Source: Methylorubrum extorquens (GTDB taxonomy: Bacteria; Pseudomonadota; Alphaproteobacteria; Rhizobiales; Beijerinckiaceae). Taken from it: DNA of 32,000 nt. Location: the NCBI GenBank assembly GCA_900234795.1, contig LT962688.1, forward strand, positions 4,620,001 through 4,652,000, read 5' to 3'. Below are positions 5,351 to 26,028 of this stretch, piece after piece. A program made the translations under genes and the position numbers. Each line of letters begins with the position of its first letter. Within the stretch, counting starts at the first letter, position 1. The notes under the pieces were generated by a model. That model was not told the origin of the DNA and made no database searches. It saw only the letters and a list, made by a program, of their open reading frames with translations.

Positions 5351-7207
5351 TCAGGAGTTCGCCCGGCCGACCTCCGGACCCCATGCGCCGAGGGTCGAGG
5401 TTTCGTCCGGGCAGAGAACCTCGTCGAGCGGCGCGATGCTCTCAGTCTGCTCCGTCAGGCCCGTCGCTGCGAGCGCCCGCACGGTCCCGGCGTCGCGGCA
5501 TGCGGCGGCGAGACCCGCCGGGTCGAGGCCGACGAGACGACCGCTCTCGAAGCGCGCGAAGACCCGCCCCGATGCCCGGTCGGCGAAGCGCACCACCGAG
5601 ACCTGCCGCAAGGCCTCCCGAAGAAAACGCGCCTCGGCCTCCGGCGCGTCGGCGACGCCGCGATAGACATCGGCCGCCGCGCGGGCGCTGATATCGATCC
5701 GCCGGTAGCGCTCGATCGCCAGCAGGGCTTTGGCATCGAGGATCGTCATCGCGTCGTTCGTGCCGAAGGCGATGGTAAGCGGGCGCGCGCCCTTGGGCAC
5801 GCTGTTGTCGAGGAATTCGTAAGTGACCGGCCGGTCCCGGCGCAGCGCCCAGGTGAAGAACAACCGCGGCATGCCGGTGAAGGCCTCGACATTGTGCGCG
5901 AGCAGATCCTCGACCGCCTTGTAGCGCCCGAACTCCTCGCCCCGCTTCCAGGCCCGCTCCACGGTTTCCTCGGGCGGCGTGATCATGAACTGCAGGTAGA
6001 CGCGCTGACCGAACCGCGTGAGGAGCTGGCCCGCACCGTCGCTGCCGGCCTCCGTCGAGAAGCTGTCGAAGCGGAAGCGATCGATCAGCAGGTGCGAGAG
6101 GCGGCCGCCGGCTGCCTTGCGGGTGATGTAGCGGTCGAGCTTGGCATCGATGATCTCCACCTCGTGCCCGGTCAGCGGCCCGGCATAGCGGCGCGCTTCG
6201 CCCAAGCTGTCATAGTCCAGCAGGAACTTGCGCCAGACGTCGGGTGTGATGACGGCGAAGTCCTGCCATTGCGCGCCGATCCGTCCGGCGAGGTCGCGCT
6301 GATACGGACGAATCGTGCTCTTGCCCGAGGCCGAAGCGCCCTTGACGGTCATCACCACCGGCTGCGCTTGCGGCGCGGGCCGGTGGTAGCCCTGCGCCGC
6401 GGCGACCGCCTCGATCCAGGGCGCGATCAGCGCGCCGATCCGGTCGCTGCCGCAGCGGTTGGTGACGAGGATGCTGGCAAGCCGCCGCAGCAGCGTGCGG
6501 TCGCGGATCAGCATGCCCTGGCGGGCGATGACGTGCCCGAACACCGTGCGCAGGGCCTCGCGGGCGGCGCTCTCCATGCTCTCGGGCTCGCTCGCGGACG
6601 CGCATCGTTCGTCGAGGCGGGCAAGGATGCGAGCCTGCCCGTCGCCGGCTGGAGAAGGGGAAGGGGAGGGCGGCTCGCGCGGGCCGAGGCGGCGGAGCCA
6701 TCCGGCCCAGCCGGAGATCGGTTCGGGCGGCGGCGCGGGCGCCTCGTCGAACAGGGCCGACAACTCGCATTCCAGCGCCGCATCGGCCTCGGCGCGGACC
6801 GCGTCCAGGGTCGCCGCGACCGCGTCGAGGCGGTGCATCACGCCCTCGCGCAGCAGCGTGCCGACGATGCGCCGGAAGTTCAGTCCGAGATCGGCATAGA
6901 CTTCGCCGACGGGGACCGAGATGTCGGCCATGACCCGGATCAGCACCTCGTGGACCGCGAGGCGCTCGGGCCGGAAGGGGGCGAGCTGCGTCGCGGGCAG
7001 GCCGCTGACATCGGACAGTTCGAGGATTTCGGAAAAGGGCAGGCGGACGTTCTCGGGCCGGAACACCGTCGCGAGCGGGCGCATCGCCCGCGGCAGGCCG
7101 GGTTCGAGGCCGGGATTCCAGGCGTGGAAGGCCGGCTCGTCCGCGCGGGCGGTGCCGGCGGCCTCGGCCGGAAACTTGCCAGAGAGGGGCGGCGCGGCGT
7201 CGCTCAT
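5351..7207 (-). CDS. Zeta-toxin-like / AAA_33-type P-loop kinase-domain protein with an uncharacterised ~290-aa N-terminal domain (618 aa)
   Basis: Walker A VKGASASGKST is followed by AVITPDVWRKFL and LLIDRFRF, which resemble zeta-toxin/UDP-GlcNAc-kinase-type P-loop kinases. Strong RBS GGGAGG 8 nt before ATG 7207. The ORF-track start at 7453 is an Arg/Ser-rich extension that overlaps the upstream gene. Confidence 0.7.
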   Translation of the reverse strand: MSDAAPPLSGKFPAEAAGTARADEPAFHAWNPGLEPGLPRAMRPLATVFRPENVRLPFSEILELSDVSGLPATQLAPFRPERLAVHEVLIRVMADISVPVGEVYADLGLNFRRIVGTLLREGVMHRLDAVAATLDAVRAEADAALECELSALFDEAPAPPPEPISGWAGWLRRLGPREPPSPSPSPAGDGQARILARLDERCASASEPESMESAAREALRTVFGHVIARQGMLIRDRTLLRRLASILVTNRCGSDRIGALIAPWIEAVAAAQGYHRPAPQAQPVVMTVKGASASGKSTIRPYQRDLAGRIGAQWQDFAVITPDVWRKFLLDYDSLGEARRYAGPLTGHEVEIIDAKLDRYITRKAAGGRLSHLLIDRFRFDSFSTEAGSDGAGQLLTRFGQRVYLQFMITPPEETVERAWKRGEEFGRYKAVEDLLAHNVEAFTGMPRLFFTWALRRDRPVTYEFLDNSVPKGARPLTIAFGTNDAMTILDAKALLAIERYRRIDISARAAADVYRGVADAPEAEARFLREALRQVSVVRFADRASGRVFARFESGRLVGLDPAGLAAACRDAGTVRALAATGLTEQTESIAPLDEVLCPDETSTLGAWGPEVGRANS

Positions 7208-7229
7208 CGCTCGCCCCTCCCGGTCTCGA

Positions 7230-7523
7230 TCAGGCGGCGGAGGCGTTCTCGATCGCCTCGAACCGGATCTGGTAGGCCTCGCCCCATAGGCTCGCCGCCC
7301 GCTCGTGCCACGCGGTGTCGAAGAACAGCTTGGCGCAGAACGAGCTGCGCCAGATGCACACCGCGATGATGCGCTCGTCCAGAACGCGGATGTGGCGGCT
7401 CTCCAGCCCGCCGGCGATGCCAAGACGGGGCAACATGTCGATGCTCGAAGCACCGAATTCGTTCTCGCCCGGGAAGACGATCGGGCATTCGATGACGGTC
7501 AGATGTTTCATCGGGTTTTCCAT
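7230..7523 (-). CDS. Hypothetical 97-aa protein, immediately upstream of and probably co-transcribed with the P-loop protein
   Basis: MENPMKHLTVIECPIVFPGENEF... with no recognisable domain. The stop lies 22 nt before the P-loop gene start. Alternative start at 7511 (MKH). Confidence 0.55.
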   Translation of the reverse strand: MENPMKHLTVIECPIVFPGENEFGASSIDMLPRLGIAGGLESRHIRVLDERIIAVCIWRSSFCAKLFFDTAWHERAASLWGEAYQIRFEAIENASAA

Positions 7524-7677
7524 GGCGGACGCCTTTTCTCGGACTCGTCTTCCGACCTGTTCCGGATCGTTCTCGCACAACGCTCGGTGAACGGTGCCTG
7601 CTCCCGGCAGGCATGAATCCGTAACGAGATGCGTCGTGTCCGGCGCTCCATTTGCGCTCACTGTGAGCCGTGCGCCT

Positions 7678-8118
7678 TCACGTATGCGGCAATGCCGGCG
7701 GGTTCGTCGCCCGTGCTTGGCCAATATCCTGGCCGACTCCTTGGCCAGCGCAGTCCCAGATACTCAGGATCGCGCTGATGCGGCAGGATTCCATCAGGGC
7801 GATGTGATCGACCTTCCGCTCGCAGAAGGTCTTCAGCCGCTCCTGCGCCGAGGCGCCGACATCGACTGCGGGAAAGTCGTGATCGGTGATGAGCCAGACG
7901 CTGCGGTTGTAGATTTCGGGGCCCTCGGTCGCCACCGCGCGGAAGATGTCGCGCTGGGTCAGCAGACCCGTCACCGTGGCGTCGGCATCGCCCTCGACGA
8001 CGACGAGCGCGCCCGTTCCCGGCTCGGCGAGGAGTTGGGCCGCCTCGGCCACGGATCGGTCCCGGTGGATGGTGCGGACGCCACCGGCATCCGGCTCACG
8101 GCGCATCGTTCCAAACAC
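7678..8118 (-). CDS. CBS-pair domain protein (146 aa)
   Basis: Two CBS motifs (VRTIHRDRSVAEAAQLLAEPGTGALVVVEGD...GLLTQRDIFRAV, and a second around FPAVDVGASAQERLKTFCERKVDHIALME). Start assigned to GTG 8118, preceded by RBS GGAGGAG (complement of 8123-8129). The ORF-track start at 8241 adds an Arg-rich extension. Confidence 0.7.
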   Translation of the reverse strand: MFGTMRREPDAGGVRTIHRDRSVAEAAQLLAEPGTGALVVVEGDADATVTGLLTQRDIFRAVATEGPEIYNRSVWLITDHDFPAVDVGASAQERLKTFCERKVDHIALMESCRISAILSIWDCAGQGVGQDIGQARATNPPALPHT

Positions 8119-8168
8119 GGCGCTCCTCCATCGGCATGCCTCTCGGACGGGGCCGCCTTGGACTGCAG

Positions 8169-8182
8169 GCTGGTATACAGCA
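8169..8182. promoter_or_regulatory. Candidate operator, site D (GCTGGTATACAGCA; also GGTAT-N5-ATACC, 8172-8186)
   Basis: CTGGTAT core with a degenerate right half. Located 51-64 nt upstream of the CBS gene start. Confidence 0.35.
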
Positions 8183-8659
8183 TACCTATTGTCAATCCTG
8201 CGTTTTGAATTATGGTGCCGCCGTCTGGGCGGGATTGGCAAGATTGAGCCGCCAAAATCGATCCGCTTAGACGTCCTCCGTTCGGCCGGTGCGGCATGAT
8301 CCGAGGCAGGTCCTGCCCCCTGATCCAGGGCTGCACGAATGCTTCGCGCTCGTCCTCGTAGGGTGTCCCCGGGAACCGGCAGAGCTCATCCGCGGCGGTG
8401 CCTTTCGGCTTCGTCAGCGCATTCTGACGAGGTGGCAGTCGGTTCGTCGAAACTCGGCGCGTTGAAACGAGGGTCCTGATCCGCCGATCCGATGTGATCG
8501 AGTTGGATGCGACTTCAAGAATTCACCGGACGAACGCGATGGTCTGCTCACGCAGTCATTCCGCGTCAGCGAATATTTAAAGTCATATTCAAAAAAATAA
8601 TCGAGAAATTGAGCGACCAAAAAGCTCGGAAAAATCGAGCGTACACTGGAGATACGTCC

Positions 8660-9970
8660 ATGACCCAACCTACGACAACATACGTTCCACCACCGACGAG
8701 CCGATGGCTGCAATTGGTGTTCGGCATCGTCTGCATGTGCATGATCGCCAACATGCAGTACGGCTGGACGTTCTTCGTCAACCCGATGCAGGAACGGCAC
8801 GGCTGGGACCGCGCCGCGATCCAAGTCGCCTTCACCCTGTTCGTTCTCACCGAGACCTGGCTGGTGCCGATCGAGGGCTGGTTCGTCGACAAGTACGGCC
8901 CGCGGGCCGTGACGCTCGTCGGCGGCCTGTTGTGCGGGCTGGCCTGGGTGATCAACGCCTACGCCGACACGCTCTGGCTGCTCTATGTCGGGGCGGCCGT
9001 TGGCGGCACCGGTGCGGGCGCGGTCTACGGTACCTGCGTCGGCAACTCGCTGAAGTGGTTCCCCGACCGGCGCGGTCTGGCCGCCGGCCTCACCGCCATG
9101 GGCTTCGGCGCGGGCTCGGCACTCACCGTCGTGCCGATCCAGGCGGTGATCCACCATTACGGCTACGAGGCCGCCTTCTTCTGGTTCGGGATCGGCCAGG
9201 GCCTGATCGTGATGCTGATCGCCCTGTTCCTCGTCGCGCCGAAGAAGGGGCAGGTGCCCGAGATCGCCCGCGTCAGCCAGAGCCGGCGTGACTTCACGCC
9301 CGGCGAGATGGTGCGCACCCCGATCTTCTGGGTGATGTACGCGATGTTCGTGATGATGGCGGCCGGCGGCCTGATGGCCACCGCCCAGCTCGGCCCCATC
9401 GCCAAGGACTTCCATATCGCCGACGTGCCGGTGAGCCTGCTGGGGATCACCCTGCCGGCGCTGACCTTCGCCGCCACGATCGACCGGGTGCTCAACGGCG
9501 TGACGCGCCCGCTCTTCGGCTGGATCTCTGACCATATCGGCCGTGAGAACACGATGTTCCTCTCCTTCGGCATCGAGGGCGTGGGCATCTACCTGCTGAG
9601 CCAGTTCGGCCAGGACCCGATCCTGTTCGTGATCCTCACCGGTCTGGTGTTCTTCGCCTGGGGCGAGATCTACTCGCTGTTCCCGGCGACCTGCGGCGAC
9701 ACCTTCGGCTCGAAATACGCCGCCACCAATGCCGGCCTGCTCTACACGGCCAAGGGCACGGCGGCGCTGATCGTGCCCTATACCAGCATCCTCACGACGA
9801 TGACGGGGAGCTGGCACGCGGTGTTCCTGGCGGCCGCCGCGCTCAACATCCTCGCGGCGCTGATGGCGATCTTCGTCCTCAAGCCGATGCGGCAGGCCTA
9901 CACGCGGCAGGAGTCGACCGTCTTGGAGGCCAACTTGGAGGCCAAGCCGAAGACGGTCTCCGCCCACTGA
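8660..9970 (+). CDS. oxlT: MFS transporter, oxalate:formate antiporter (OFA) family, paralogue 1
   Basis: 436 aa, 12-TM MFS pattern. WLQLVFGIVCMCMIANMQYGWTFFVNP and GDTFGSKYAATNAGLLYTAKG. ATG 8660 with upstream GGAGA. About 60% identical by eye to the downstream paralogue. Confidence 0.9.
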   Translation: MTQPTTTYVPPPTSRWLQLVFGIVCMCMIANMQYGWTFFVNPMQERHGWDRAAIQVAFTLFVLTETWLVPIEGWFVDKYGPRAVTLVGGLLCGLAWVINAYADTLWLLYVGAAVGGTGAGAVYGTCVGNSLKWFPDRRGLAAGLTAMGFGAGSALTVVPIQAVIHHYGYEAAFFWFGIGQGLIVMLIALFLVAPKKGQVPEIARVSQSRRDFTPGEMVRTPIFWVMYAMFVMMAAGGLMATAQLGPIAKDFHIADVPVSLLGITLPALTFAATIDRVLNGVTRPLFGWISDHIGRENTMFLSFGIEGVGIYLLSQFGQDPILFVILTGLVFFAWGEIYSLFPATCGDTFGSKYAATNAGLLYTAKGTAALIVPYTSILTTMTGSWHAVFLAAAALNILAALMAIFVLKPMRQAYTRQESTVLEANLEAKPKTVSAH

Positions 9971-9981
9971 GGCCGCGCACG

Positions 9982-10004
9982 GGCCGGGCCGCCGCCCGGC
10001 CTTT
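9982..10004 (+). terminator. Intrinsic terminator candidate after oxlT paralogue 1
   Basis: GGCCGGGC (9982-9989), loop CGCC, GCCCGGCC (9994-10001), followed by TTT. Confidence 0.5.
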
Positions 10005-10155
10005 CGAAGAATGTCGGCGCGTGCCGGGCTCAGACGCCCGGTGCGCGCCGACGCGTTTTTCCGATCCCGACGCCGTGCATTCTTTGACCTGCTCCCGCCG
10101 ACGCGGTCGCTCCGGTGTGCCGGGTTGCCGCACCGCCACGCTTGGACTTTGCTGC

Positions 10156-20696: not shown

Positions 20697-21887
20697 TTAA
20701 TCCGCCGAGGCCGAGCGGCGCGGCGTGGCGTTGCGCCGGCTGGCGAAGACGCCGGGGGCCGTGCCGGGCACCACGACCAGGCGCCGGACCTCGCCGCTCA
20801 GATAGGCCTGGAGGAAGCGGGTGTAGTTCCGGAACACGACGCAGCCGTTCGAGGCGCCGCTCGGGCCCAGCATGTAGGTGTGGGCGAGGATGCCGTCGCG
20901 CCCGTGGATGGCGGCCGAGCCACCGACCGGATTGAGGCGGATCGCTCGCACCCCATGGAACAGCGCCTCGCGCTCCCGCAGGTCGTAGACCCCGGGCGGG
21001 GTGGCGCCGCGCATCCGGATATGAACGTGGTCCGGGTTGTCCTGGGCGACGCCGAGGCCGGAATGGGCTTCCAGCACCTCGCCGCTTGGCAGCGTCACGG
21101 TGGCGGCGCTGATGTCGTAGACGGCGACCCCCGGCTCAGAGACTGGGCCCGGCACGACGCGCCGCCGCGCGGCCGAATCGACCGCCCCGCTGTCGAGCCC
21201 GGCATAGGCCATCGCCTTGTCCGAGGACGGCGTGGGCGTCGAACCCGGCAGATCGAACATCTTCTCGAGGAAGTTGCGGTTATCGGTGACCGCGGCGCTG
21301 AACACGCTGCGGGTCGGCTCGGTGGAGGCGCGCGCCGTGGATGCGGTGGCGATCCGAGGCGTCGCCGCTCGGGCGGTCTGCGTGCGCGGCTCGTAGCGGA
21401 ATTCGTCGGGCCGCCGCACCGGCAACGGCACCGTGAGGGCGAGGCGGGCCGTCGGCGCGGCCGGGCGCGGTGTGATGGCGGGCGCGGCGTCGGCAGCCTG
21501 CTCCGCGGGGAGGGCGGCCAGGGTCGTGACCGGCTCCGATGGGGCAGGCTGCGACTTGGAAGGCTCCGCCACGGGTGGCGCCCGGAAGGCGGACACCTGC
21601 GCGGTCCGCGGGACGAAGCCGCCGGACGCGGTGTCGAGCACGGGGGTGGGGTCGAGCATCCAGGCCAGCGCGCCGGGCGCGGCCTGCACGGCCGCCGCCC
21701 CGTCGGCCTCGGCCGAGACCTGCGCGGTTTCCACGGGGGCGGGCGCGGCGCGATCCTGTGGTTGCAGGATCCCGGCGACCGCGAGACCCCCGAGGGCGGT
21801 CAGCGCGAGCGCCGCGACAGGCGGGCGGCGCCGACGGCGGATGACGGGCCGGGCGGAGCGACTCTGGACGAGCTCGGCGATGTCCAT
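20697..21887 (-). CDS. DUF2778 / Tlde1-like L,D-transpeptidase-fold protein with N-terminal membrane anchor and long Pro/Ala-rich linker
   Basis: C-terminal AIHGRDGILAHTYMLGPSGASNGCVVF (YkuD-like H...SxGC catalytic motif). N-terminal RRRRRPPVAALALTALGGLAVAGIL anchor. Start at ATG 21887. Confidence 0.7.
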   Translation of the reverse strand: MDIAELVQSRSARPVIRRRRRPPVAALALTALGGLAVAGILQPQDRAAPAPVETAQVSAEADGAAAVQAAPGALAWMLDPTPVLDTASGGFVPRTAQVSAFRAPPVAEPSKSQPAPSEPVTTLAALPAEQAADAAPAITPRPAAPTARLALTVPLPVRRPDEFRYEPRTQTARAATPRIATASTARASTEPTRSVFSAAVTDNRNFLEKMFDLPGSTPTPSSDKAMAYAGLDSGAVDSAARRRVVPGPVSEPGVAVYDISAATVTLPSGEVLEAHSGLGVAQDNPDHVHIRMRGATPPGVYDLREREALFHGVRAIRLNPVGGSAAIHGRDGILAHTYMLGPSGASNGCVVFRNYTRFLQAYLSGEVRRLVVVPGTAPGVFASRRNATPRRSASAD

Positions 21888-22334
21888 TGCGGGCGGTACT
21901 CGACAACGCGGATCCCACACGGCCTCCCGCCGTCATCCCCGGCTATCTGTGCCAGAATGACAAAACGAGATGGCTTCGCCGATTAGGGAAGGATCAACCT
22001 TAAGCCTTCGTCATTCAACGGGATCTTGGTTAATCTTGCCTAAAGCTCGGTCACGTCCTTCGAAAAACGTTCGATGCGGTTTCTCGACGGCTGCGCCGTG
22101 CTACGAGGCGGTAGCCTCTACCAACCGCCGCGGCGCAGTGCGCGCTCGATCACGGGATCGACCGGGCGATCGCCATCGTCTCGCGTTCCCGCCTTCAGGC
22201 CGATGCAGGAAGTGCAGCCGCCATGGGGCTTCTCGCCGAGCCCTTGTGCTCTACGGGCCACAGGTTGTGTGATGTTGTTACATTTCATTGGCCGGTCTGT
22301 TGACCCTGCGCCGCATCGCAGCGAAGTTGCTGCG

Positions 22335-22518
22335 GCCAAGGTTCCCCCGGATGCATGTCCGAGGGCTAAGAGGGAATTCGGTAAGCCCGTCCGGGCGAGG
22401 CCGAAGCTGCCCCCGCAACTGTGAGCGGCGAGCCACCGTCGTCGAAGGTCACTGGTGCCCTGCACCGGGAAGGCCGAGACGGGGGCGCTGACCCGTGAGC
22501 CAGGAGACCTGCCTTGGC
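22335..22518 (+). promoter_or_regulatory. Cobalamin (B12) riboswitch
   Basis: P1 arms GCCAAGG (22335-22341) and CCTTGGC (22512-22518). Conserved core AAGAGGGAATTCGGT (22368-22382), GAAGCTGCCCCCGCAACTGTGAGC (22404-22426), CACTGG...CCGGGAAGGC (22450-22473) and B12 box GAGCCAGGAGACCTGCC (22497-22513). Confidence 0.85.
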
Positions 22519-22636
22519 GCGACGATGTCCCCCGGGCGGGGTGCTCCGGCGGCGTGCCTGATCGGCGAGAGCGTTCCCCTGCGCTCCCGGCGGGGCACCC
22601 GCTCGGGCCCGCACCCGAACAGCCAGAGCGCGCCTT

Positions 22637-24832
22637 GTGACAGTTCGGACGATCCTGAACGCCATCGACGTCCCGGCCCGGCGCCCGCCTTGGATGCTCG
22701 CCGCGCTGCTCTGCGCCAGCCTGCACGGCCCGGAGGCGCGGGCGCAGGAATCGGTCACCCTGGAGGAACTGGCGGTCGAGGGCGAAGGCCGCGGCGTCGG
22801 CAACGGCGCATCGGACGGCCGGACCAGCGCCGCTGGCACGATCGGCCTGATCGGGCCGACGCCGGGCTACCGCGCCGACCGCGCGGTGAGCAGCACGAAG
22901 ACCGACACGCCCCAGCGCGACGTGCCCCAGATCGTCACGGTCGCCCCGCGCGAGGTCATCACGGATCTCGCCGCCACCCGCGTCGATCGCGTCTTCAACT
23001 ACACGCCGGGCGTGGCGCAGCAGAACAATTTCGGCGGCCTGTCGGTGTTCAGCTACGCCATCCGCGGCGTCACCACGTCCGAGATCTACAAGAACGGCTT
23101 TCCGCTCAACCGCGGCACGCCGCCCCCGCCCGACGCCCAGAACGTCGAGCGCGTCGAGGTGCTCAAAGGCCCCGGCGGCGGGCTGTTCGGGCGCAGCGAT
23201 CCGGGCGGGCTCGTCAATATCATCACCAAGCAGCCGACCGTCGAGCGCTTCGTCGAGATGGGCGGGTTGTGGGACTCGTTCGGGCAGTTCCGCGGCACGG
23301 TCGATTCCGGCGGCGCGCTGAACGAGGAGGGCACGCTCGCCTACCGCTTCAATCTCGCCGCCGGCCGCCAGGGCAGCTTTCGCGATTTCGTCGACAGCGA
23401 CCGGCTGCTCGTGGCGCCCGTCCTGAGCTGGCAGATCACGCCGGACACGCGCATCACCGTCGAGACCGAGTTCCTGCGCAACCGCATCGTCTTCGACCGC
23501 GGCGTCATCGCCCTCAACGGGCGGCTCGGGCTCTTGCCGATCTCGCGCTTCCTCGGCGAGCCGGGCCAGAGCACCTATCAGACCAACAACACGATGCAGG
23601 TCCGCGTCGATCACCGCTTCAACGCCGATTGGCAGATGCGGCTCGCCACCCACTTCAACACCGGCACGCTGGAGGGCGAATCCGCCGAGATCCGCGCCAT
23701 CGCCGCCGACAACCGCACCGTCGCGCGCGACCGCAACATCCGCGACTACCGCTGGGACGTGGCGATCGGCCAGGCGGAGGTGGTCGGGCGCTTCGACACC
23801 GCCGGAATCGGCCACACCATGCTGCTCGGCTTCGAGCGCGAGAGCACCGACAGCCGGGTCGTCTACAACCGCTCGAACTTCCGCACGAGCCCCTACGCGA
23901 TCGACATCTATGATCCGCGCTACGGCCAGCCGCTGCCGCCGATCACCATCCCGCGCAACAACCTCGAGCGGATCACCAACACCGCCCTCTATGCGCAGGA
24001 CCAGATCGTCCTCACGCCCGAATGGAAGGCGCTGCTCGGCGTGCGCTTCGACTTCTTCGAACAGTCGTTCCGCGAGCGCATCCCGCGGTCCCAGGTCGAT
24101 CAGACCTACTTTGCCGCGACGCCCCGCGCCGGCCTCGTCTATCAGCCGCTGCCCGAACTCTCCCTCTACGCCAATGTCGGCACGAGTTTCCGCCCCAATA
24201 TCGGTCCCGATGCCGCCGCCTCCGCCTCTGGGCCGTTCGCGCCGGAAACCGGGATCGGCTACGAGGTCGGCGCCAAGCTCGACCTCTATGGCGGCGCGCT
24301 GGCGCTGACCGGCACCGCCTTCCGGATCGACCGGGAGAACGTGCTGACGCCGGAGGCCAACGGCAGCGGTTTCTCCGTGGCGGTCGGCGGGGTGCGCAGC
24401 CAGGGCTTTGAGCTGACCGCCGCCGGCCAGATCACGCCGGAGATCAAGTTGCTGGCGGGCTATGTCTACGCGGAGGCCGTGGTCACCGAAGATCCGACCT
24501 TGCCGGCCGGCACGCCGCTCATCAACGTGCCGCGCCATTCCGGCAGCCTGCTCGCCGTTCACGAGGTGCAGGCCGGCCCGTGGAAGGGGCTCGGGCTCGG
24601 CGGCGGCGTGCGCGGCGTCGGCGAGCGAGCGGCGGACGCGGTCAACAGCTTCTCCCTGCCGGCCTATATCGCCGTCGATGCGCTCGCCTATTACCGCTAC
24701 GAGAACTTCCGCTTCGGGCTGAACATCGAGAACGTGTTCGACACCGAGTATTACGAGAGCTCCCTCAACCGCTTCCGGGTCTATCCCGGCGCGCCCCGGC
24801 GCTTCACCGGAACGATGACGGTGCGGTTCTGA
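22637..24832 (+). CDS. TonB-dependent outer-membrane receptor (siderophore-receptor-like architecture), B12-riboswitch controlled
   Basis: 731 aa. Signal peptide ...WMLAALLCASLHGPEARAQ, TonB-box-like VTLEELAVEG, plug motif TKTDTPQRDVPQIVTVAPREVI, VEVLKGPGGGLFG, terminal ...TMTVRF. GTG 22637 is preferred; alternative ATG at 22694. Confidence 0.9.
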   Translation: MTVRTILNAIDVPARRPPWMLAALLCASLHGPEARAQESVTLEELAVEGEGRGVGNGASDGRTSAAGTIGLIGPTPGYRADRAVSSTKTDTPQRDVPQIVTVAPREVITDLAATRVDRVFNYTPGVAQQNNFGGLSVFSYAIRGVTTSEIYKNGFPLNRGTPPPPDAQNVERVEVLKGPGGGLFGRSDPGGLVNIITKQPTVERFVEMGGLWDSFGQFRGTVDSGGALNEEGTLAYRFNLAAGRQGSFRDFVDSDRLLVAPVLSWQITPDTRITVETEFLRNRIVFDRGVIALNGRLGLLPISRFLGEPGQSTYQTNNTMQVRVDHRFNADWQMRLATHFNTGTLEGESAEIRAIAADNRTVARDRNIRDYRWDVAIGQAEVVGRFDTAGIGHTMLLGFERESTDSRVVYNRSNFRTSPYAIDIYDPRYGQPLPPITIPRNNLERITNTALYAQDQIVLTPEWKALLGVRFDFFEQSFRERIPRSQVDQTYFAATPRAGLVYQPLPELSLYANVGTSFRPNIGPDAAASASGPFAPETGIGYEVGAKLDLYGGALALTGTAFRIDRENVLTPEANGSGFSVAVGGVRSQGFELTAAGQITPEIKLLAGYVYAEAVVTEDPTLPAGTPLINVPRHSGSLLAVHEVQAGPWKGLGLGGGVRGVGERAADAVNSFSLPAYIAVDALAYYRYENFRFGLNIENVFDTEYYESSLNRFRVYPGAPRRFTGTMTVRF

Positions 24833-26028
24833 TGAGGGCTCGCCAAGGGGCGGCCATGGATGCGTCCGCACCGGCTCCCATCGCCGCGGGGGTCGCGCCA
24901 CGCACCCGCATCGGCGCCATCGATGCCCTGCGCGGGCTCGTGATGCTGCTGATGCTGGTCGATCACGCGCGGGAGTTCTTCTACCTGCACGCCCAGGTCA
25001 GCGATCCGGTGAACCTCGCGGCGACCCCGCCCGGCCTGTTCCTGACGCGGGCCGCCTCGCATTTTTGCGCCCCGGTCTTCCTGCTGCTGACCGGGCTCTC
25101 GGCGAGCCTCTACGGGCAGAAGCACGGCAGCCGCGCCGCGACCTCCGCCTTCCTCATCAAGCGCGGACTCTTCCTGGTCGCCCTTGAAGTGACCCTGGTG
25201 AACCTCGCCTGGACCCGTGCCCTGCTGCCGCCGATCCTCTACCTGCAGGTGATCTGGGCGATCGGTCTCAGCATGATGGCGCTCGCCGCGCTGCTCTGGC
25301 TGCCGCGTCCGGCGCTGATCGGCGTAGGCCTGGCGATCATGCTCGGGCACAACGCGCTCGACGGGATCGTGCTGACGCCCGATCAGCCGGGCTACGCCCT
25401 GTGGGCGGTGCTGCATCAGCGCGGCCTGATCCCGCTGCCCTGGGGCGCGGCGCGCACCTCCTATCCGGTGCTGCCCTGGATCGGCGTGATCACCGCGGGC
25501 TACGCGCTGGGGCCGCTCTACGGCACGGGCGTCGATCCGGGCACGCGCCGCCGACGCCTCGTCGCCCTTGGGCTCGCGAGCCTCGTCGCCTTCGCGATCC
25601 TGCGCGGCCTCAACGGCTACGGTGATCCGCATCCGTGGCAGGCGGGCAAGGATTGGGGCGCGGACGCCCTGTCCTTCGTCAACCTCACCAAGTATCCGCC
25701 CTCGGCCGACTTCCTCCTCGCGACCCTCGGTCCCGGCCTGCTGCTGCTCGCGCTGTTCGAGCGCCTGCCGGAACGGCGTCTAGGCTGGCTCACCGTCTTT
25801 GGCGGGGTGCCGCTGTTCTTCTACCTGCTGCACTTATGGGCCCTGCGCCTGACCTATGACGGCCTTGCCGCCTTCGGCCTTGCGGGTTCCTCCGGCCGGA
25901 TCGAAGTCGGCGCCCCGTTTCAGATCTGGCTGGTCGCGGCGCTGTTCGCGCTGGCCCTCTACCCGGCCTGCCTCTGGATGGTGCGGCTGAAGCGGCGCAG
26001 CCGGTGGCGGGGTCTGAGCTACCTCTGA
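24832..26028 (+). CDS. DUF1624 (heparan-alpha-glucosaminide N-acetyltransferase-like, COG3503) polytopic membrane protein
   Basis: 398 aa. RIGAIDALRGLVMLLMLVDHAREFF and about 9-10 predicted hydrophobic helices. The ATG overlaps the receptor stop (TGATG, 24830-24834). Confidence 0.7.
   Translation: MRARQGAAMDASAPAPIAAGVAPRTRIGAIDALRGLVMLLMLVDHAREFFYLHAQVSDPVNLAATPPGLFLTRAASHFCAPVFLLLTGLSASLYGQKHGSRAATSAFLIKRGLFLVALEVTLVNLAWTRALLPPILYLQVIWAIGLSMMALAALLWLPRPALIGVGLAIMLGHNALDGIVLTPDQPGYALWAVLHQRGLIPLPWGAARTSYPVLPWIGVITAGYALGPLYGTGVDPGTRRRRLVALGLASLVAFAILRGLNGYGDPHPWQAGKDWGADALSFVNLTKYPPSADFLLATLGPGLLLLALFERLPERRLGWLTVFGGVPLFFYLLHLWALRLTYDGLAAFGLAGSSGRIEVGAPFQIWLVAALFALALYPACLWMVRLKRRSRWRGLSYL

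Follow-up and report, generated by a model that had tools for sequence, protein, structure and literature searches.

Riboswitch, receptor and membrane partner

We analyzed a 32,000-nucleotide (nt) stretch of DNA from Methylorubrum extorquens (assembly GCA_900234795.1, contig LT962688.1, positions 4,620,001 to 4,652,000 of the forward strand), hereafter called the window, whose own numbering is used throughout. It carries a cobalamin riboswitch, the gene of a TonB-dependent receptor and an overlapping gene for a polytopic inner-membrane protein of the HGSNAT_cat family (the former DUF1624), and a putative operator of the Zur type lies 36 nt upstream of the riboswitch. The features are summarized in Table 1. 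As argued below, they may together form an uptake module for a chelated metal, probably cobalt, under the control of zinc and B12.

Table 1. Coordinates of the operon and of the elements in its leader, in window numbering
Feature	Positions	Strand	Evidence
Inverted repeat TGTG-N10-CACA TGTGCTCTACGGGCCACA	22245-22262	+	Leader alignment
Putative Zur-type operator ATGTTGTTACATTTC	22272-22286	+	Mismatch scan, position weight matrix, conservation
-35-like TTGACC, candidate promoter with GAAGTT (22323-22328)	22300-22305	+	Leader alignment
Cobalamin riboswitch aptamer RF00174; B12 box 22497-22513	22322-22530	+	Rfam, 119.9 bits
Expression platform; Shine-Dalgarno-like GAG 22626-22628	22531-22636	+	Conserved blocks
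TonB-dependent receptor, siderophore class, 731 aa	22637-24832	+	Pfam, TIGR01783
HGSNAT-fold (former DUF1624, Acyl_transf_3 clan) polytopic inner-membrane protein, 398 aa	24832-26028	+	PF07786, PF01757, AlphaFold2 model

RF00174 was the sole Rfam family matched within the 32 kb; its score was well above the gathering score of 31.5 bits (E = 8.4e-30), and the match covered the full model (positions 1-189 of 189). P1 is formed by GGCCAAGG and CCUUGGC, the B12 box reads GAGCCAGGAGACCUGCC, and the GTG start codon of the receptor gene follows 106 nt after the 3' end of the aptamer, or about 119 nt after the 3' end of P1. Among the loci sampled with Rfam in the survey described below, the orthologous aptamers of L003, L008 and L012 scored 113-124 bits. 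Between aptamer and start codon, the expression platform retains two conserved blocks, CCCGGGCGGGGTG and GAGCGCGCC..GTG, and the GTG start together with the GAG 8 nt upstream of it was invariant across 11 species. The terminator scan found no intrinsic terminator in the leader, the z-score of the platform's minimum free energy was weak (-1.65), and RNAalifold on the aligned platforms yielded no sequestering helix common to both subgroups. Since no terminator was found, shut-off would probably occur at translation initiation. As a separate observation, a G-rich block directly 3' of the aptamer is common to distant hosts (CCCGGGCGGGGTG at 22533-22545 in the window, CCGGCGGGGTGTCCGGG at 7373-7390 in the Pseudomonas locus L064), and it may belong to the expression platform or to a pseudoknot.

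The receptor gene and the DUF1624 gene form a two-gene operon, in which the TGA of the former (24830-24832) shares its A with the ATG of the latter, the resulting TGATG occupying 24830-24834. The independent NCBI gene calls of CP021054.1 contain the identical two genes with the identical overlap. On the 3' side of the DUF1624 gene lie a convergent urtA and then urease genes, and the domain annotation of the neighbors revealed no btuFCD 3' of the pair; because the next gene is the convergent urtA, the operon is limited to the two genes and includes no btuFCD.

The receptor matched the Pfam families Plug (64.1 bits) and TonB_dep_Rec_b-barrel (214.4 bits). It passed the TIGR01783 model, named TonB-dependent siderophore receptor, with 353.2 bits against a cutoff of 223.5, and failed the BtuB model TIGR01779 with 45.3 bits against 599.7, the plug region alone being covered. 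Its nearest solved structures were Pseudomonas aeruginosa FoxA, the enantio-pyochelin receptor and FhuA, and no BtuB chain was found among its PDB matches with E below 1e-10. The name CntO requires caution here: the same P. aeruginosa sequence (PDB 6i96/6i97/6i98, 6z8a and 8b43) is deposited both as "Ferrioxamine receptor FoxA" and as CntO, so that the label "Metal-pseudopaline receptor CntO" was not used by us. In UniRef, Pseudomonas relatives of the window receptor (P0195, P0228 and P0229) likewise bear the name CntO, which looks propagated and unreliable.

The partner protein, whose nearest homologue is from Methylorubrum extorquens (96% identity), matched PF07786 (HGSNAT_cat) with 50.2 bits against a cutoff of 22 over residues 26-233, the same assignment being given in the precomputed annotation of its orthologues. 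A marginal match was also obtained to PF01757 (Acyl_transf_3; 35.6 bits against 31, residues 28-376), and we take the spacing R34-x10-H45 to fit the Arg/His motif in the first transmembrane helix (TM1) of that family. The orthogroup has a mean column identity of 60% over alpha-, beta- and gamma-proteobacteria and myxobacteria, and its invariant residues include R34, M41, D44, H45, R47, D58, C79, E119, H173, N174, H195, R197, H334 and K387.

The AlphaFold2 model of this protein had a predicted local distance difference test score (pLDDT) of 80.5 and a predicted template modeling score of 0.82. In the Foldseek search, human HGSNAT (PDB 8vlv, 8vkj and 8jl4) was the only significant structural match (six chains, probability 1.00, template modeling score 0.53-0.57); the next match was NarK (E = 0.12, score 0.20), and no transporter fold was matched by the model. 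A PDB profile search returned nothing at E <=1, and a single-sequence search of the PDB returned spurious phytase matches only. Unlike HGSNAT, to which its identity is about 14%, the window protein is without the luminal domain and TM1, and it has an invariant histidine for N286.

We set up an ungapped register between the two proteins with a segment of the human HGSNAT sequence. The numbering of this segment was checked only against the five residues given in PMC11199644, all of which it reproduces; in that structure, R275 and M282 contact coenzyme A (CoA), N286 stabilizes the acetyl group, and H297 and D307 make up the catalytic dyad. In the register so obtained, R275 and M282 fall on the invariant R34 and M41, and N286 on the invariant H45. 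Binding of acyl-CoA by the DUF1624 protein is plausible because R34 and M41 are invariant at CoA-contact positions. The helix order of the model, combined with the positive-inside rule, would place nearly all of the invariant polar residues at the periplasmic face and the basic residues R26, R34, R111, R239 and K387 at the cytoplasmic one, as in the HGSNAT layout.

The initial annotation of this locus had described a well-formed B12 riboswitch with the above P1 and B12 box about 120 nt upstream of a 731-aa receptor of siderophore rather than BtuB type, a TGATG stop/start overlap with a DUF1624 gene, and no btuFCD-type genes behind the pair. All of this was borne out, and we regard the anatomy of riboswitch and operon as practically certain. 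Its further statement, that the inner-membrane partner is not among the known transporters of cobalt or cobalamin, was likewise supported.

A Zur-type element and the distribution of the gene pair

In the Methylobacterium leader alignment, two blocks upstream of the aptamer were conserved: a TGTG-N10/11-CACA repeat and a palindrome-like element with the window form GTGATGTTGTTACATTTCAT. The 15-nt site within the latter (ATGTTGTTACATTTC) differs at two positions from ATGTTATTACATTAC, which is a Zur motif of Paracoccus denitrificans read as its reverse complement; in that species, promoters carrying such motifs (e.g. GTAATGTAATAACAT) were used for electrophoretic mobility shift assays (EMSA) (PMC5387054). 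The gamma-proteobacterial Zur consensus is AATGTTATAWTATAACATT, and Zur of Acinetobacter baumannii binds the znuA/zur-znuCB Zur-box probe CGAAGCATGTTATAATATAACAAAGTTAC in EMSA (PMC3516566); in Caulobacter, Zur-repressed promoters validated by EMSA and reporters have predicted sites of the same type (PMC4176598). In the window, this site was the sole match at <=3 mismatches on both strands of the 32 kb (0.01 expected) and the top match of the position weight matrix (16.8 bits).

The conservation of the site and of its gene context was examined in a survey of 80 DUF1624 loci, with one genome per species, comprising 11 loci from Methylobacterium/Methylorubrum and 69 others; riboswitches were searched for with an nhmmer profile on all 80 loci and with Rfam on a sample. 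An equivalent Zur-type site was present in every one of the 11 congeneric loci (13 kb each), invariably 5' of the riboswitch or the receptor gene, and in each of them the site at the operon promoter was the only one within 4 mismatches. Among the other 69 loci, 34 had a Zur-type site at most 200 nt upstream of the DUF1624 gene, while composition-matched scrambles of the consensus averaged 0.66 loci, with a maximum of 9. A palindromic-scramble control averaged 1.33; its single value of 34 was most likely due to a permutation that regenerated the real half-site. The elements upstream of DUF1624 orthologues include AATGTTATAGGATAACGTC in Pseudomonas, AATGTAATAGTATAACGTT in Acinetobacter and GTGATGATGTAACATTACG in Sphingomonas, the last of which the window element matches almost base for base, and exact 15/15 matches were found at the Bordetella and Achromobacter loci.

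The riboswitch was found in 10 of the 11 congeneric loci. At the remaining one, that of M. gossipiicola (L006), the receptor-DUF1624 pair is present and the riboswitch was absent by both Rfam and nhmmer; a Zur-type box, TGAACGTAATAACAT, lies there about 45-75 nt upstream of the candidate start codons (L006 3640-3800) and overlaps the -35 position of a -10-like hexamer, TATAGA, which was placed by eye. As to the promoter of the window operon, a consensus promoter scan of the leader found nothing. In the leader alignment, the spacing between a conserved TTGAC/TTGCT and the aptamer is constant, and the manual promoter candidates disagree on the position of the Zur box relative to the -35 hexamer. 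Taken together, Zur-type control of the operon appears likely on these comparisons. Beside it, the inverted repeat of Table 1 lies 9 nt upstream of the Zur-type box, and its position and form (TGTG-N10/11-CACA) were kept in all 10 riboswitch-bearing congeneric leaders despite diverged flanks; it could be a second operator.

The DUF1624 gene was directly preceded by a receptor orthologue (73-93% identity) in all 11 congeneric loci, and the junction GTGCGGTTCTGATG was kept in every one. Outside the genus, the DUF1624 orthologue (48-60% identity) adjoins a siderophore-class receptor in 24 further loci, none of which had a riboswitch. In Sphingomonas and Acinetobacter, the receptor gene is transcribed divergently from the DUF1624 gene; in Novosphingobium, Sphingobium, Niveispirillum, Phenylobacterium and Altererythrobacter, it follows the DUF1624 gene on the same strand. 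These adjacent receptors are about 35% identical to that of the window and represent separate lineages, so that adjacency of receptor and DUF1624 genes was seen in 35 of the 80 loci, in three orientations and with at least three receptor lineages.

Considered from the receptor side, orthologues of at least 64% identity were found in the genus only; for the next relatives, identity drops to 49% (e.g. Belnapia) and 43-45% (Pseudomonas). An SBP_bac_5 ATP-binding cassette (ABC) importer of the Nik/Opp type follows the receptor relative in Belnapia and a related contig, and a 242-aa DUF4198 gene follows it in P. solani, an arrangement whose resemblance to icuAB (see below) is limited to gene order and size. 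The DUF4198 family includes Zcp, a periplasmic zinc-capture protein under Zur regulation that was crystallized with Zn, Cu, Co and Ni (PMC12663993). At the loci of the three nearest receptor relatives outside the genus (44-49% identity), a strong Zur box lies 40-70 nt upstream of the receptor gene and is the sole such site of the locus; no riboswitch was found at any of the three. The synteny on the DUF1624 side and on the receptor side indicates that both genes derive independently from Zur-box lineages and that the riboswitch was overlaid on them; as far as these loci tell, it is an overlay specific to Methylobacterium/Methylorubrum.

The only other riboswitches among the 80 loci occurred in Pseudomonas sp. 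1P02AnB (L064) and in a Pseudomonadota metagenome-assembled genome (L075). There a Zur-type box, the DUF1624 gene, a riboswitch and a Peripla_BP_2 plus FecCD ABC system follow one another (L064 5900-9521). The aptamer (106.9 bits) lies 26 nt after the DUF1624 stop codon and precedes the BtuF/FecCD-type ABC genes, with no terminator or promoter-like site found between them. These two loci may represent a second, independent combination of Zur and B12 control, and their gene order recalls the Zur-boxed, BtuF-like PFL_0643-0645 discussed in PMC10393844.

Two further observations were made in the survey. In 11 Pseudomonas loci (L031, L034, L039, L045, L050, L053, L058, L062, L068, L070 and L079; about 7200-10100 in most), metE, the gene of cobalamin-independent methionine synthase, is convergent to the DUF1624 gene, an adjacency that may simply be inherited synteny. 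In five species, an extra small open reading frame (ORF) of about 75-100 aa, opened by the conserved TGATG, separates the receptor gene from the DUF1624 gene: M. brachiatum, M. indicum, M. terricola, M. aquaticum and M. alsaeris (L008 5720-6000, L009 3578-3777, L010 5717-5971, L012 5840-6000 and L016 5678-6000). Its product contains ...LTRRG(I/V)PKPRGGRVWTPPDVRRLLSRL and weakly resembles a recombinase-type helix-turn-helix (HTH_62, 18.6 bits, below the cutoff of 27).

Cargo, control and the role of the partner

From these comparisons we infer the regulation, the cargo and the role of the DUF1624 protein. The operon would be an uptake module for a chelated metal, probably cobalt, under zinc and B12 control, a reading to which we assign a probability of roughly 45%. 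Considered part by part, a metal chelate rather than a corrinoid is the probable cargo, and the chance that cobalt is the relevant metal is about even. Because both genes come from lineages associated with zinc starvation through their Zur boxes, uptake of chelated cobalt or zinc would be most likely, not that of B12. Cobalt would fit both signals, since it is the metal of B12 and since cobalt uptake under zinc shortage is Zur-controlled in P. aeruginosa, where the Zur-regulated PA2911-2914 system imports pyochelin-cobalt and the cobalt spares zinc, as supported by experiment (PMC11481552). Receptors that are not BtuB and are governed by a B12 riboswitch are predicted cobalt receptors, none yet confirmed (PMC7689651), and the growth of M. 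extorquens on methanol is cobalt-limited (PMC2732905).

In the mechanism that we propose, Zur would control transcription of the operon in response to zinc, and adenosylcobalamin bound to the leader would then shut expression off, probably at translation initiation. The receptor would carry a metal-chelate complex into the periplasm. More speculatively, the HGSNAT-fold partner would not be a conventional permease and might use cytoplasmic acyl-CoA to modify a periplasmic substrate, as suggested by the retained acyl-CoA-contacting helix together with the periplasm-facing invariant polar residues; this substrate might be, for example, the imported chelator, whose modification would free a metal that is not releasable by reduction. 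An acyltransferase role of the partner is possible on the model, at odds somewhat short of even. We give only a small chance to the complete proposal, namely that a periplasm-facing acyltransferase frees cobalt or zinc from a metallophore and that the operon is a two-input gate of Zur and cobalamin and a candidate cobalt route.

Several observations weigh against the interpretation of the operon as a cobalt-uptake module under joint zinc and B12 control. For zinc or cobalt taken singly, it would be odd for expression to depend on low zinc together with low B12. Both mismatches of the window box fall in the core half-site blocks (GTTG for GTTA and TTTC for TTAC), and if TTGACC-N17-GAAGTT is the promoter, the box would be centered near -56, a position linked with activation, not repression, in Caulobacter (PMC4176598). 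No Zur box was found upstream of the gene in the myxobacterial and many of the Novosphingobium/Sphingobium loci. Neither znuABC nor a COG0523 or ribosomal-paralogue gene was found beside the DUF1624 loci examined, the neighbors checked for such canonical Zur genes being a major facilitator superfamily sugar transporter, LysE, an aminotransferase and MetE, and an in-genus positive control is thereby lacking. About half of the DUF1624 orthologues stand without a neighboring receptor gene. Lastly, in the ungapped register with the human segment, the HGSNAT dyad H297-D307 corresponds to V56 and P66; H53 (21/23) and D58 (23/23) stand near the dyad positions, in a loop modeled with a pLDDT below 50.

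An alternative that leaves the cargo and the regulation as proposed is that the DUF1624 protein serves as an inner-membrane permease for the metal or metal-chelate, with an HGSNAT-type pore repurposed. HGSNAT has a central membrane-crossing pore (PMC11199644), its catalytic dyad is unmatched in the register, no other inner-membrane component is encoded in the operon, and the nearest relatives of the receptor pair with true importers; moreover, H45, H53, H77, C79, E119, H173, H195, H334, D44 and D58 are invariant or nearly so and are potential metal ligands. However, the model has no similarity to transporter folds (the best match other than HGSNAT scoring 0.20), the invariant R34 and M41 at CoA-contact positions are hard to explain without acyl-CoA binding, and a limited literature search found no HGSNAT-fold member reported as a transporter. 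We consider a permease rather unlikely.

With respect to the metal, the cargo might be a zinc chelate, B12 control being explained by a lowering of zinc demand by cobalamin, for instance when MetH replaces the abundant zinc enzyme MetE. The Zur-box association of both gene lineages and the retention of the operon without the riboswitch in M. gossipiicola are in line with this, and in Caulobacter, related Zur-regulated receptors support growth under zinc starvation and the zinc-requiring MetE is up-regulated in the zur mutant (PMC4176598). The convergent metE of the 11 Pseudomonas loci could be read in the same way, although that adjacency may be inherited within one Pseudomonas group. The argument from zinc demand is speculation, however, and zinc uptake is not among the functions governed by the known cobalamin riboswitches, which control the supply of B12 or cobalt, or isozymes independent of B12 (PMC7689651; established knowledge), so that we hold a zinc cargo to be unlikely.

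It is similarly improbable that the Zur-like element does not work here, being a relic or the site of another regulator, and that the operon responds to cobalamin alone. The two core mismatches, the possible position upstream of the -35 hexamer and the lack of an in-genus positive control speak for such a view, and the adjoining second inverted repeat may belong to another factor. Against it stand the retention of the element in 11/11 congeners, including the riboswitch-less locus, while the flanks diverge, its overlap with the -35 position of the TATAGA hexamer (placed by eye) at that locus, its near identity with the Sphingomonas element upstream of DUF1624, and its uniqueness in the 32 kb.

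Finally, the receptor could be a non-orthologous corrinoid receptor feeding the chromosomal BtuFCD, with the DUF1624 protein modifying or handling the corrinoid, as would suit the classic btuB arrangement of cobalamin riboswitch and TonB receptor, the presence of btuFCD without btuB on M. extorquens chromosomes (PMC3621897), and the L064/L075 loci, where a riboswitch-controlled BtuF/FecCD-type ABC system directly follows the DUF1624 gene and no terminator separates the two; yet this is unlikely, because the receptor is far below the BtuB cutoff (45 bits against 599.7) and has no BtuB among its solved relatives with E below 1e-10, its nearest relatives have Nik/Opp-type ABC or DUF4198 metal partners and Zur boxes without a riboswitch, one congener (M. 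gossipiicola) is itself without the riboswitch, and a BtuF-like riboswitch-controlled ABC system can import cobalt, as CbtJKL illustrates (PMC7689651).

The functional part of the initial annotation can be qualified accordingly. Among the cargoes that it had offered (a corrinoid, a cobalt chelate or a precursor), the cobalt chelate fits best, and the corrinoid is disfavored by the receptor class, the partners of the relatives and the Zur context. The riboswitch behind its B12-repressed uptake is real, but the Zur-type operator had been missed, and in view of that operator B12 is probably not the sole signal. The co-occurrence of riboswitch, TonB-dependent receptor and DUF1624 gene that it had looked for holds in 10/11 congeneric loci, while the 24 receptor-adjacent loci outside the genus offer Zur boxes and no riboswitches. 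Synteny of DUF1624 with B12-regulated receptors, whose absence elsewhere the annotation had named as a refutation, was accordingly not seen outside Methylobacterium.

Related systems and further observations

A cobalamin riboswitch on a receptor other than BtuB is of an already known, predicted kind. In Novosphingobium aromaticivorans, a receptor with NiCoT and CobW is a predicted cobalt TonB system under a B12 riboswitch (Rodionov 2006, summarized in PMC7689651). The window operon resembles such predicted cobalt receptors in its cobalamin riboswitch before a non-BtuB TonB receptor, and differs from the N. aromaticivorans system in that its partner is of the HGSNAT fold, not a NiCoT permease or CobW, and in the Zur-type operator upstream. 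With P. aeruginosa PA2911-PA2914 (PMC11481552) it shares a siderophore-type TonB receptor under a Zur box; that system, whose inner-membrane partner is an ABC importer, includes neither a riboswitch nor a DUF1624 gene. As in E. coli btuB, the cobalamin riboswitch lies in a TonB receptor leader without an intrinsic terminator, as in translational control. Unlike btuB, the window receptor fails the BtuB model, has no linked btuFCD, and is accompanied by an added Zur-type operator and an overlapped HGSNAT-fold gene.

In the searched literature we found nothing that links DUF1624, COG3503 or the HGSNAT-type acetyltransferase name to Zur or cobalamin, the papers that mention DUF1624 being unrelated, and no paper on an HGSNAT-fold partner in this context or on a Zur-type operator combined with the riboswitch. 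According to a 2021 review (PMC7689651), a cobalt-specific receptor of the outer membrane has yet to be confirmed, and the present locus provides a concrete candidate for one in a genetically tractable methylotroph. If the complete proposal is correct, the two-input gate would make the operon the first candidate accessible to experiment for a cobalt-specific route across the outer membrane. The arrangement points to an integration of zinc status, by way of Zur, and of B12 status, by way of the riboswitch, on one transcript, which, if true, would tie cobalt supply to zinc sparing in a way comparable to pyochelin-cobalt in Pseudomonas. The locus also supplies the first regulatory context that we found for a widespread, highly conserved bacterial branch of HGSNAT/DUF1624, which is associated with Zur boxes across alpha-, beta- and gamma-proteobacteria, often stands beside TonB receptors, and had no function in the literature searched. 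A partner that acylates a metallophore would, if real, represent a new route of metal release.

Another TonB receptor operon of the same organism group deserves comparison. In icuAB of Methylobacterium extorquens AM1, which experiment has tied to cobalt-limited growth, the receptor gene icuA also overlaps its partner, by 4 bp; IcuA has 704 aa and IcuB, of COG5266, has 243 aa (PMC2732905). We rejected the identity of the window operon with icuAB, since sizes and families differ (a 731-aa receptor and a 398-aa HGSNAT_cat protein) and a riboswitch is unmentioned in PMC2732905. With up to 3 mismatches allowed, the quantitative PCR primer of icuA matched nowhere in the window; the primer of icuB had one chance-level match with 2 mismatches, inside the formyl-CoA transferase gene frc.

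The Zur regulon of Caulobacter crescentus (ZnuK/L/M and ZrpW; PMC4176598) is similar in that Zur-repressed TonB receptors and an uncharacterized membrane protein occur with operators of the GTTA..TAAC type. ZrpW was rejected as a DUF1624 protein: it has 209 aa and no Pfam match, and BLASTP against the window protein gave E = 0.87. Its gene is followed by a COG0523 gene and has no preceding receptor, unlike the window operon. The ZrpW family is still without a Pfam model, and on a metagenome contig (OFDC01001932.1; L083 6288-8096) we noted an exact zrpW Zur operator, a 209-aa membrane ORF and then a CobW/CobW_C gene of COG0523.

Within the window, an ORF at 20697-21920 on the minus strand, divergent from the receptor operon and uncalled in the NCBI record, is probably a real gene. 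Its product would consist of an N-terminal membrane anchor, a Pro/Ala-rich linker and a C-terminal Tlde1 (L,D-transpeptidase-like) domain, the latter matching PF10908 with 100.5 bits against 30.1. The G+C content at third codon positions of this ORF was 0.89, and the region was 79-84% conserved across five Methylorubrum species.

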